NCBI GenBank assembly: GCA_963845385.1
Contig: CAWJRW010000006.1
Location: 1,416,910-1,480,909 of the forward strand
Source: an uncultured Alphaproteobacteria bacterium
GTDB lineage: Bacteria; Pseudomonadota; Alphaproteobacteria; CAWJRW01
Length of the DNA stretch: 64,000 nt
Direction of reading: 5' to 3'
Part shown: positions 1 to 64,000 of the stretch, one piece after another
Layout: every line of letters starts with the position of its first letter
Numbering within the stretch: the first letter of the stretch is position 1
Translations under genes and position numbers: made by a program
Notes under the pieces: generated by a model
Told to the model about the DNA's origin: nothing
The model's input: only the letters and a program-made list of their open reading frames with translations
The model's database searches: none

Positions 1-1200
1 GGGATCGAAGGCCTCCTTGACGCGCTTGGTGAGCTGGGCGAGCTCGGCCGCTTCCGGCTGGAAAACGGGCACGGCCTTGCGCACGGCTTCGTCGGCGCGA
101 AAAAGCGTCGCATGGCCCGCAGGCATTGCCGAGCGCGCGGCGCACGATCGCCTCCTCGGCATGGGGCGCCGTGCGCCATCTCGAGCCAGAGGAGACCGCC
201 GCCCCAATCGTAGAACCAGGATTCCGCCCCCGCCGCGGCCGCCACCGCAGGTCCGTCCTTGGGCGCCACCGAAACCCGCCATAGGGGCCGCTCGCTGCCG
301 GCGAAATAGGCGACGTCGCGAATCTCGCGCCACAGCGCTTGGCTGTCTTCTCTGCTTATGACGAAGGTGCCCGACTTGCCGCCGGCGAGCGCGCGGCCGT
401 GACCCTGCGCGCGCAGATCGCTGCGCAACCGCTCGACGCGATGGGTGAGCGCCTTCTCGCTTCCTTCCATGCGCATGAGCGTCGTCGCCGTACCGATCAG
501 GCGTATAGGCGCGACGCTCGAGAGGCCTGCGATGTTTTCGGGCAGATGCGCGGCGGCGGAGACTTCGCAAGGCGACGACAGTCCATCGCGCAGCGCCTGC
601 ACGGCCGTTTGATCGGAAAGCCCCGCGATGACGAGCGTGCGCTCGTCTTCGGCAATCGGCGCGAGCTTCAACGTCACTTCGGTGATGAGCCCGAGCGTGC
701 CGTAAGCGCCCGCCATGAGCTTGGGCAGATCGTAGCCCGTGACGTTCTTCATCACGCGCCCGCCGGACTTGAAGAATTCGCCGCGGCCGTTGATGGCGGC
801 AATTCCGAGCAAATGATCGCGCAGCGCGCCCGCCTTCACGCGCCGCGGGCCCGAGACATTGGCGGCTACGAGGCCGCCGAGCGTCGCCTTCCCCGCCGGC
901 GCGCCCAGGAGCGGCCCGAAATCCGCGGGCTCGAAGGCCAAGCGTCTGCCGATTTTCGGCGAGCAAAGCCTCGATTTCGGCAAGCGGCGTCGCGGCGCCC
1001 GCGCGCAGCACGAGCTCGTCGGGCTCGTAGAGCGTGACGCCCGTGAGCGCGGAGAGATCGAGCATGCAGCTCGCCGCGACGGGACGGCCGAGCGCGAGCT
1101 TGCTGCCGCCCGCGCTGAGGCGCAGCGACGCCCCTTCCGCCGCCGCCCAGGCGACCGCTTCGCGCGCCTCAAGGGCATCGTTGCAGCGCCAGGTCTCCAC
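1..1200 (-). pseudogene. glcE: Glycolate oxidase FAD-binding subunit GlcE. The 3' end runs off the window and the frame is broken at least twice.
   Basis: Reverse-strand translation from GTG at 1200 gives VETWRCNDALEAREAVAWAAAEGASLRLSAGGSKLALGRP...TGYDLPKLMAGAYGTLGLITEVTLKL. At the window edge it reads MPAGHATLFRADEAVRKAVPVFQPEAAELAQLTKRVKEAFDP. It lies directly downstream of glcD. Continuity requires frame switching, and no single ORF covers it in the track. Confidence 0.75.
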
Positions 1201-1220
1201 GTGGCTTGCGTCCGTACTCA

Positions 1221-1403
1221 ATCCGATGTCATCCCGGACGCTAGGCGAGCCCGAAGACCGAAGGTCTTCGGGTTGCGAGCCTTGCGATCCGGGACCCGGG
1301 GCCAAACACGAGAGCGTTGCCCTGGGTCCCGGATAGCTCGCTTTGCCGACGAAAGCGCTCTGCGCTTTCGGGCAAATCGGCTTCCGGGATGACGGTGTCG
1401 GAT
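1221..1403. repeat. Nested imperfect palindromic (REP/MITE-like) intergenic element
   Basis: Outer arms are atccgatgtcatcccgga and tccgggatgacggtgtcggat. Inner arms are gatccgggaccc and gggtcccggat. It fills the glcD-glcE spacer. The gtcatSccgg/ccggSatgac core recurs at 54994-55097. Confidence 0.6.
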
Positions 1404-1419
1404 CAATTGAATTGTGGCC

Positions 1420-2911
1420 TTAAAAGCGCGGCAGGTTCGCGAAAGGCAAGCGGCCGCGATGCACATGCATGCGCCCGAGCTCGACGCAGGAATGGAGCGT
1501 CGGAAACATCTTGCCCGGGATTCAAGCGATGATGCGGATCGAAGGCGCATTTCACGCGTTCCTGCTGGGCGAGATCGTCGTCGTTGAACATGAGCCCCAT
1601 GAGATCGCGCTTCTCGACGCCGACGCCGTGCTCGCCGGTGAGCACGCCGCCCACCTCGACGCAAAGCGTCGAGAATTGCCGCGCCCAGCGCCTCGGCGCG
1701 CTCGGTCTCGCCTTCGCGATTGGCGTCGAACAGGATGAGCGGATGGAGATTGCCGTCGCCCGCGTGGAAGACGTTGACGATGGGAAGGCCCGCTTCCGCC
1801 GCGAGCTTGCCGATGCGCGACAAGCACGGCGGGCAAGGTGCGCCGGGGAATGGTGCCGTCCATGCACAGATAATCGGAGGCGACCTTCGCCACCGCAGGG
1901 AACGCGGCCTTGCGCCCGGCCCAGAAGGCGAGCCGCTCCTCGTCGCTTTCGCTCAAGCGCACGGATGTGGCGCCCGCGCGGCGCGCGATGACGGCGATCT
2001 TCTCCGAAAGCTCGTCCACATCCTCGACGGAGCCGTCGATTTCTGCGATGAGCAGCGCGTCCGCATCGCTCGGGATAGCCCGGCGCGCAATAGGCTTCGA
2101 CCGCACGGAGCGCCGCGCCGTCCATCATTTCCAATCCAGCCGGAATGATGCCCGCCCCGATGATGGCGCCGACGCAAGCCGCCGCGTCCTCCACGCGCGC
2201 AAAGCCCAGAAGCGCCGCGCGCACGCTTTCCGGCTGGCGCAAGATGCGCACCGTGACTTCGGTGACGACGCCGAGCAGGCCTTCAGAGCCCGTCATGACG
2301 CCTAAGAGATCATAGCCGCCGGCGTCGAGATGCTTGCCGCCCAGCCGCACGGTCTCGCCGTTCATGAGCACGACCTCGACGCCCAGCACGTTGTTGGTCG
2401 TGAGACCGTATTTCAAGCAATGCACGCCGCCGGAATTTTCGGCCACGTTGCCGCCGATGGTGCAGGCGACCTGGCTCGAGGGATCGGGCGCGTAATAGAA
2501 GCCCTGTTTCTCCACGGCGGCCGTGATGGCGAGATTGGTGACGCCGGGCTCGACCGTCACGCAGCGATTGTCGAGATCGATGTCGAGAATGCGCTTGAGC
2601 TTGGTGAGCGAGAGCACGATGCCGTCGGCGAGCGGCAGCGCGCCGCCCGAGACGCCCGTGCCTGCGCCGCGCGGCACCACCTTGACGCCGAGCCTGTTGC
2701 ACAGGCGCAGAACCTCGCGCACCTCGTCGCGGCTCTTGGGCAAGGCCACCGCGAGCGGGGTCTGACGGTAGAGCGTCAAGCCGTCGAAGGCGAAAGCTTC
2801 GAGGCGCGCTTCGTCCTCGACCAGGTCTTCGGGGCTCAGGATTTGCCGGAGCGCCGCGCACAGCTCATCGCGGCGCAAGAGAACAGACGGATCGGGCGCG
2901 GGCATTTTCAT
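1420..2911 (-). pseudogene. glcD: Glycolate oxidase subunit GlcD (FAD-linked oxidase), with at least 4 frame breaks
   Basis: The N-terminal 270 aa of ORF 1403..2911 is a typical FAD_binding_4 domain (VVPRGAGTGVSGGALP, GGNVAENSGGVHCLKYG). The sequence continues in ORF 1552..2106 (ADALLIAEIDGS...DYLCMDGTIPR), then ORF 1218..1823 (VFHAGDGNLHPLILFD), then back (GGVLTGEHGVGVEKRDLM). The expected C-terminus NPGKMFPTLHSC...ANLPRF ends at TAA 1420 in yet another frame. Confidence 0.85.
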
Positions 2912-62456: not shown

Positions 62457-62882
62457 GTGTCTTTCCGTCCTGCGTGCGGCATGTCTTCGCCGAAGCGATG
62501 ATGGATCGGACCTTGCGCGCCTGTTGGCCAGGGGGATGAAGCCCGCTGCGCATAGCATCGGTCAAGGCCAAGGCGATGACAAACGGACGGCGGATGGGTT
62601 GCTGTGAGGCGGTTGATCGAGATCAAGGCGAAGATGCGCCGAGCCCCTTCAAATGCTGTCACCGTCATGCGGAGCCAAGACCGGCGAAACACGGCAGTGA
62701 AGCGTCTTCCCGGCGCGGATCTGACCTAGGTGATGAACCGATCTGGCTGTGAAACAGGGCGGAGGGACCCGCGGTCGCCGCGTCCAGCGCCTCAGAGGAG
62801 ACTCAGGGGTGGAGGGCGGATGGAGCGGGTCCTGCCGTTTGGGGGCGCCGATTGCGCGGCCGCTTGAACGGAAGGGGCGCAA

Positions 62883-63544
62883 ATGTGCTTCTCGGCGACT
62901 GCTAGCTTTGCCGTTGCAAGCTTTACCGGCGCCGTCGGGGTCGTGACCCTTCGCCATGTGCGCGCGCCGCGCGAGGCGGTGCTCGGCTCGTTTCCGCTCA
63001 TCTTTGGTGTTCAGCAGGTGATCGAAGGCACAATCTGGCTCGTGCTGCCCGGTGGCGATGATCCGCTCCTGGTGCGCGCGCTTGCCATCGCCTTTGTCTT
63101 CATCGCCACGGTCGTTTGGCCCGCGCTCGTGCCCGTGGCCGTGTATCTGGTCGAGCCCGATGCACGGCGCAAGCGCTTGCTTCATGTGCCCATGGTGATC
63201 GGCGCGCTTGTCAGCCTCGCTTGTCTCGCGGCCATTATCGCGAGCCCGCACCACGCCTCGATCGCCGAGCGCAGCATCCAATACAGAAACGATATTCCCG
63301 ATATTTCCTGGTGGGCCGTTCCTTATCTTCTCGCCACCGTGGCGCCGCTTTTTCTTTCCTCGCACCGGCCCGTCCAAGCGCTGCGGCGCTGCTTGTTTCC
63401 GTGGGCTTCATCGTCTCGACCTATTTCTATGCCGAGACCCTGACATCCGTGTGGTGCTTCTTCGCGGCCGGCGCGAGCGTGATCCTCTGCTTCCAATTCG
63501 TGCGCGGTTTCGCGCTCAAGGCGCCGGCCGGCCGTCCCGCGTGA
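62883..63544 (+). pseudogene. Hypothetical polytopic membrane protein, with one frame break near 63385
   Basis: The hydrophobic ORF 62883..63443 (MCFSATASFAVASFTGAVGVVTL...) has further TM helices in the tail of ORF 63116..63544 (LLVSVGFIVSTYFYAETLTSVWCFFAAGASVILCF). Confidence 0.5.
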
Positions 63545-63571
63545 GGAGTTCCGCCGCCGCGGAGCGCACCC

Positions 63572-64000
63572 TCACCCGCCCATGAGCTCGGCCGGCACGC
63601 CGAGCTCGCGCGCGCCGCATAGCGCGAAGCCCGGCCCACGCGTGAGCCAAAGCAAGATCGCCAAGCCGTATTCCGGATAGCGCTTGGTCATCTCTTTTGC
63701 GATGTCGGCGATGCGCACGCCGGGCTTGGCAACTTCGCGGTAGTCCTCGAGCCATTTGACATTCTTGTCGAATATCTCCGTGCCGCCCGCGGGCCCATGG
63801 CCGGGGAAGACGAGATCGATCGGTCCCAAATTGCGCGAGGCCTCGATCGCGGAAATCCAAGATGTCGGATTGTTGGTGTCCGCCATGTAGAGGTGCAAAT
63901 CATTGAACAGAAGATCGCCGGCGACGAAGGCGCGCGCCGACGGCACATAGAAGGCCGTGGCATGCACCGTCTCGGCTACCGGCAAATCGAACAGCACGAT
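63572..64000 (-). CDS. MBL-fold metallo-hydrolase; C-terminal part only, as the 5' end lies beyond the window
   Basis: The sequence is HATAFYVPSARAFVAGDLLFNDLHLYMADTN...LVFPGHGPAG. The reading frame is still open at position 64000. Confidence 0.6.
   Translation of the reverse strand: MVLFDLPVAETVHATAFYVPSARAFVAGDLLFNDLHLYMADTNNPTSWISAIEASRNLGPIDLVFPGHGPAGGTEIFDKNVKWLEDYREVAKPGVRIADIAKEMTKRYPEYGLAILLWLTRGPGFALCGARELGVPAELMGG

Follow-up and report, generated by a model that had tools for sequence, protein, structure and literature searches.

Pervasive frame breaks in a 64-kb stretch of an uncultured alphaproteobacterial genome are very probably consensus errors in the deposited sequence

The stretch analysed here, called the window throughout, comprises 64,000 nt on the forward strand of contig C6 in the genome assembly GCA_963845385.1 of an uncultured alphaproteobacterium (C6:1416910-1480909). 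Approximately 32 of its roughly 58 protein genes are interrupted by changes of reading frame, among them typA, thiC, glcD, glcE, a gene with RTX repeats and four adjacent genes of a biosynthetic cluster. An earlier sequence-only reading had found about 24 frame-switching genes and had ascribed the breaks to small insertions and deletions (indels) left in the consensus rather than to gene decay; the breaks are real features of the record and that count was conservative. The assembly comprises 3.09 Mb with 64.5% GC in 10 contigs, the largest being 2.19 Mb long, and its marker completeness is estimated at 73% despite the long contigs. Long contigs combined with low marker completeness are what an unpolished long-read metagenome-assembled genome (MAG) typically shows. 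All relatives among the genomes offered for comparison are related at class level only.

Closer relatives were obtained by protein searches. The product of rimO and the stitched products of typA and thiC each retrieved a protein with 91-93% identity, and all of them came from one group of JGI metagenomes. The contigs encoding these proteins tile a sister species with approximately 85% nucleotide identity, which is syntenic with the window from 11.6 to 64 kb and beyond (L020, L028, L007 and L031 plus over 10 redundant contigs, originating from six or more samples). Every orthologue in this region is intact in the more than 15 contigs of the sister species. Gene-by-gene DNA alignment to these orthologues covered 44.8 kb of coding sequence and revealed 101 frame-shifting gaps (2.2 per kb); the broken set consists of every gene that has such a gap and of four further genes from the first 12 kb. 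A non-homologous alignment of the thiC 3′ end to the relative (33.40-33.56 kb) was left out of the counts.

Frames were also traced with a codon-usage Viterbi model, which was used instead of a frame plot of GC content at third codon positions (GC3) that proved too noisy. The log-odds were trained on 633 long open reading frames (ORFs) with high GC3, and the model has seven states (six frames and non-coding). A frame switch was called when it was direct, on the same strand, and when the upstream frame had no stop codon within 45 nt. The clean contigs of the relatives (approximately 70 kb, non-redundant) yielded a single false call; the model detects about 40% of the breaks, and fewer where they are dense. 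The 37 calls in the window lie within a few bases of breaks in the homology map.

The breaks are strongly clustered (chi-square 204 on 49 degrees of freedom, 1-kb bins), which bears out the extreme patchiness noticed earlier. Their density reaches approximately 11 per kb in 55.2-58.5 kb and 5-6 per kb just beyond the end of the window; it is about 1 per kb in 19-34 and 44-54 kb, and almost no breaks occur in 12-17, 35-39 and 58.6-61.7 kb. The blocks that had been listed as free of breaks are nearly clean, though not perfectly so: they contain events at gene ends (13013, 17961, 50236, 51568, 51577 and 61760) and, in one of them, a compensated indel pair at 52630/52637.

The gene typA (bipA; 20395..22193, plus strand) matches the TIGR01394 model in seven consecutive pieces (1-60, 62-122, 115-193, 191-264, 263-424, 419-533 and 532-594), the phases of which step through 1, 2, 0, 1, 2, 1 and 0. 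This gives six breaks, where at least six had been proposed. Compared with the intact orthologue on L020, there is an extra base at approximately 20577, 20765, 20970 and 21205 and a missing base at 21678 and 22005. In 10 of 10 class-level relatives, typA yields a single uninterrupted match to TIGR01394 (1-594) above the cut-off.

The thiamine pyrophosphate (TPP) riboswitch located before thiC (31401..31523, plus strand) is, as previously stated, intact: it matches Rfam RF00059 over its full length (model 1-105) with 70.4 bits against a gathering threshold of 54.3. The gene itself (31593..33318, plus strand) matches NF006763 in five pieces over 31638-33312. Alignment to the intact orthologue of 613 amino acids (aa) in L028 shows five gaps that result in four net frame changes, not the five or more expected, and all of these net shifts are in the extra-base direction (approximately 32053-32062, 32584, 32761 and 33119). 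The longest ORF at this position (640 aa) begins at an ATG at 31491, inside the riboswitch, and the start of the orthologue corresponds to approximately 31593. This mismatch indicates that the intact-looking ORF is a chance-open frame that masks the breaks. On the 3′ side of thiC, window positions 33320-33790 hold approximately 470 nt compared to approximately 180 nt in the relative, and the extra sequence is not alignable.

At the beginning of the window, glcE (1-1419, minus strand) contains at least one to three breaks. The neighbouring glcD (1403-2968, minus strand) runs through three frames and back, with at least three breaks traced near 1666, 1816 and 2068; that the gene is broken is thus correct, and the earlier minimum was four. 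The NCBIfam models NF008408 and NF008439 match here with consecutive profile parts in differing frames, and the switches of the codon model coincide with them.

The densest patch (55233..58568, minus strand) contains approximately 40 frame-shifting gaps in 3.3 kb when aligned to L007. Compared with the intact orthologues, 12 gaps are found in the O-methyltransferase gene, four in the glyoxalase gene, seven in the SnoaL-like gene and 14 in the SDR gene, where at least 15 for all four genes together had been predicted. At least six independent contigs of the sister species carry these four genes in intact form. The edge of the patch is sharp (approximately 58.57 kb), and the following 3 kb show no breaks inside genes. 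The patch overlaps a biosynthetic cluster (window 55.2-61.8 kb) with a chalcone-synthase-like type III polyketide synthase, two or three methyltransferases and SnoaL-like, SDR, glyoxalase-fold and FAD monooxygenase proteins. This cluster is conserved and syntenic in the sister species (L007, L031-L035); half of it is unreadable in the record because of the patch. Next to it, at window 54344-55233, all contigs of the relatives carry a gene for a 328-aa O-methyltransferase, and the window has approximately 0.9 kb without a Pfam match. An ultra-dense error patch at 54.3-55.2 kb was considered and rejected, as only the last 17 codons of the methyltransferase gene align and no Pfam match is found. 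This segment is thus a real replacement or deletion.

The RTX-repeat gene (41740..44554, minus strand) is matched by tblastn in pieces in frames -1, -2, -3 and -2. This corresponds to at least three frame changes; the disruption is confirmed, with fewer breaks traced than the five or more reported. Approximately 48 tandem 27-nt (nonapeptide) repeats are located at 41985-43340 on the minus strand; their register slips by 2 nt near 42775-42797, and the spacing breaks from 27 to 272. Copy-to-copy alignment of the 183-nt repeat in this gene shows three single-base length differences at 43.70-43.74 kb, as had been described, within a span of approximately 40 nt and not 70 nt. The orthologue in the relative is intact and encodes 947 aa. 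The RTX gene adjoins its own type I secretion genes (44805..50198, plus strand), which code for two ABC transporters and an HlyD-type adaptor and carry one, three and one single-base insertions, respectively. The evidence comes from frame changes in tblastn at 45668, 46730, 46977 and 49906 and from gaps in the DNA alignment.

Two independent assemblies lie closer to the window than the sister species. L037, a short-read contig from the Logan assembly of ERR11592905, matches window 23914-27140 with 99.6% identity (14 mismatches), and the sole length difference in these 3.2 kb is an extra base in the window at 24918 (plus strand). It breaks the gene for a 179-aa hypothetical protein, which is intact in L037; homology had placed this break at 24919 and the codon model at 24925. 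The second contig, L013, was assembled with MEGAHIT and is 96% identical over 3.7 kb (48225..51949, plus strand), with 150 substitutions, six insertions in the window and no deletions. The six extra bases (48836, 49905, 50211, 50236, 51568 and 51577) are located in the end of an ABC transporter gene, the HlyD-type gene, an intergenic spacer and both ends of rimO. Reproduction of the indels in a second isolate had been named as the observation that would speak for true pseudogenes; L037 lacks the one break it covers and L013 lacks all six. An exact-protein look-up with the window's rimO gave no match, owing to the corrupted ends of this gene. Exact look-ups with the chalcone-synthase-like, inositol-phosphatase and host-attachment proteins likewise gave no identical products, and thus no same-strain contig was obtained over typA, thiC or the densest patch.

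Had real decay accumulated 14 indels in 0.8 kb, numerous neutral substitutions and some nonsense codons would have come with them. Genes with 6-14 breaks diverge from the sister species by 2-11% at codon positions 1 and 2 compared to 24-31% at position 3, a difference of 3-10 times, and even those with 12-14 breaks show 4-11% at positions 1 and 2 and 25-31% at position 3. Substitutions in typA are mostly at third positions (0.053, 0.023 and 0.240 for positions 1, 2 and 3). The intact neighbours rimO and the chalcone-synthase-like gene share this pattern. Mismatches are equally frequent near to and far from the indels. The sequence-only reading had seen frame shifts and no point nonsense codons, and this holds: 101 frame-shifting gaps stand against no credible nonsense codon in 14,825 codons tracked along the orthologue frame, where the two stops encountered lie beside an alignment gap and in a non-homologous tail. 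Elsewhere in the genome, the single-copy gene rpoB is split into three pieces and gyrA into five, so that a cell with the genome as written would not be viable.

The breaks are not confined to the window. Genome-wide, the codon model made 1,513 calls on all ten contigs (1,215 insertion-like and 298 deletion-like), and the actual total of breaks probably exceeds 3,000. Counts in 5-kb bins are over-dispersed (variance-to-mean ratio 2.9), and their autocorrelation falls from 0.29 at 5 kb to 0.13 at 10 kb and has vanished by 15 kb. Stretches of 10 kb or more without a call make up 28% of C6 compared to 3.5% under a Poisson distribution. The assembly also contains redundant strain-variant contigs (C10, C7, C4 and C5), which are 93.5-97% identical to parts of C6 and C8, and the small variant contigs are denser in breaks (7-8 compared to 5 per 10 kb). 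Pairwise alignments of the redundant copies over 35 kb contain 203 gaps, 198 of which have a length not divisible by three, and the substitutions fall mostly at third positions (for example 1.9, 1.2 and 5.8%). This shows that the substitutions were filtered by selection while the length changes were not. Length differences between copies coincide with 38 of the 43 model calls in these regions, which are therefore private to one copy; at this gap density, about 40% would coincide by chance. On a small scale, the two copies of the 183-nt repeat in the RTX gene give the same picture. The codon-biased substitutions indicate that the bin combines two or more strains or sister species that occur together.

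Of the single-base events in coding sequence of the window, extra bases account for 45 and missing bases for 14. The insertions comprise 14 G, 13 C, 11 A and seven T. The codon model leans somewhat towards insertion-like calls, as the frame that follows an insertion contains fewer stops; counting all excess boundary calls as deletions would nevertheless leave an insertion-to-deletion ratio of about 2.3:1. The counts obtained by homology (45:14, and 6:0 relative to L013) are independent of the model. One break had been noted in a T5 run (approximately 53.59 kb), which suggested a link to homopolymers. This case is unrepresentative, since 28 of the 45 insertions (62%) do not adjoin an identical base, compared to 53% expected by chance. 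These 45 insertions are not enriched in homopolymers, the longest of which in the window measures 7 nt, and the break sites share no recurrent motif. The missing link to homopolymers suggests random errors that were not averaged out, and not systematic error.

Watson and Warr are said to have described indel-induced frameshifts in long-read assemblies in 2019. Published long-read assemblies and MAGs resemble the present one in that length errors of 1-2 nt fragment genes, essential ones included, and polishing or frameshift-aware correction removes them (PMC8103633, PMC8574707, PMC12007338). They are also alike in that marker completeness is depressed despite contiguity, more strongly in low-coverage contigs. 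Frameshift correction of long-read MAGs raised completeness from approximately 85% to approximately 94-95%, the most in low-coverage contigs, and nanopore MAGs show a coverage dependence and a completeness penalty like those seen here (PMC8103633). The present case differs from published ones in the 3-4:1 excess of extra bases and in a density of up to about 11 per kb in patches.

The indels in the window are not biological. We estimate a probability of about 95% that the frame breaks are consensus errors in the deposited sequence and not mutations in the organism. The length changes are short and come without excess substitutions, they were not reproduced in independent contigs or in the other strain copies, nonsense codons are absent, and essential genes are hit in an assembly of low completeness. 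All this favours consensus indel errors over gene decay. A decaying or hypermutating lineage with about half of its genes truly frameshifted by very recent mass pseudogenisation is hardly credible. The many breaks taken as a raw count would speak for it, and intact regulatory elements would fit very recent events. Mycobacterium leprae and Sodalis glossinidius likewise have many interrupted genes, and there nonsense codons, deletions and insertion sequence (IS) insertions occur together under relaxed selection while essential genes stay intact. None of these signs of decay is found here: indels are the only lesions, neither IS insertions nor a relaxed codon-position pattern was seen, and rpoB and gyrA are broken. 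Moreover, the insertion bias is the opposite of the bacterial deletion bias, and the breaks are absent from the 99.6% and 96% identical assemblies. It is just as improbable that the indels are real in a population, or in relic or damaged environmental DNA, in which insertion-biased, homopolymer-independent mutation would have hit about half of the genes with no substitutions since. The least probable explanation is that the cell tolerates the frameshifts through programmed ribosomal frameshifting or transcriptional slippage, and nothing specific speaks for it. Apparent frameshifts in conserved genes of Buchnera and Blochmannia are rescued by transcriptional slippage at poly(A) tracts, which needs long A/T homopolymers at the break. 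The breaks described here, in DNA with 65% GC, lie mostly outside any run, share no motif and number up to 14 per 0.8-kb gene.

An artefact of another kind, the collapsing of co-occurring strains (94-97% identical), is unlikely but deserves more weight. The patches would then be strain-variable regions and not regions of low depth. Redundant variant contigs are present in the assembly, their substitutions look like real divergence, and the small ones have the higher break density. However, the mismatch rate to the relative is not raised near indels or in the densest patch, and the indels are clean single-base insertions instead of mosaic stretches.

On the favoured reading, the consensus keeps roughly one spurious single-base length change per kb, with extra bases exceeding missing ones by approximately 3-4:1. 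Random errors of single-molecule long reads may have stayed un-averaged where a stretch was supported by too small a number of reads or by insufficient short-read polishing. The errors would be random, insertion-rich and independent of homopolymers, with negligible substitution error, which suggests a noisy long-read platform; such a profile is that of raw errors in single-molecule reads like PacBio continuous long reads (CLR). The patches most likely reflect local depth or uneven short-read polishing, because their size of 5-10 kb is on the scale of read lengths; the denser breaks on the minor-strain contigs fit this cause. Some points weigh against the reading as consensus errors. Residual errors in well-covered PacBio assemblies of GC-rich genomes are G/C deletions, of which more than 70% lie in homopolymers (PMC8574707), and nanopore errors are homopolymer deletions, whereas insertions independent of homopolymers prevail here. 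The spectrum is thus unlike published residual errors, and the exact error source is uncertain; this difference from well-covered PacBio data looks like insufficient averaging and not systematic error. Furthermore, the same-strain control L037 comprises only 3.2 kb and one break.

Two RNA genes lie in a clean block of the window. An sRNA of the mmgR/suhB family (16715-16789, minus strand) is matched over its full length with 72 bits, and a tRNA-Val(GAC) gene (15071-15145, minus strand) also gives a full-length match.

The frame breaks hold no biological novelty, and their value is practical, as a warning about a genome record. Duplicated contigs in which substitutions respect codons and indels do not provide one fingerprint for flagging similar records; the insertion-biased signature outside homopolymers, patchy on a scale of 5-10 kb, provides another. 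The record is the species representative of a lineage with class-level relatives only in the genome collection, and more than half of its genes are mistranslated as written. Gene calls, pseudogene counts, the completeness estimate of 73%, domain architectures and apparent oddities such as a missing start or stop are therefore error-prone when taken from this genome.

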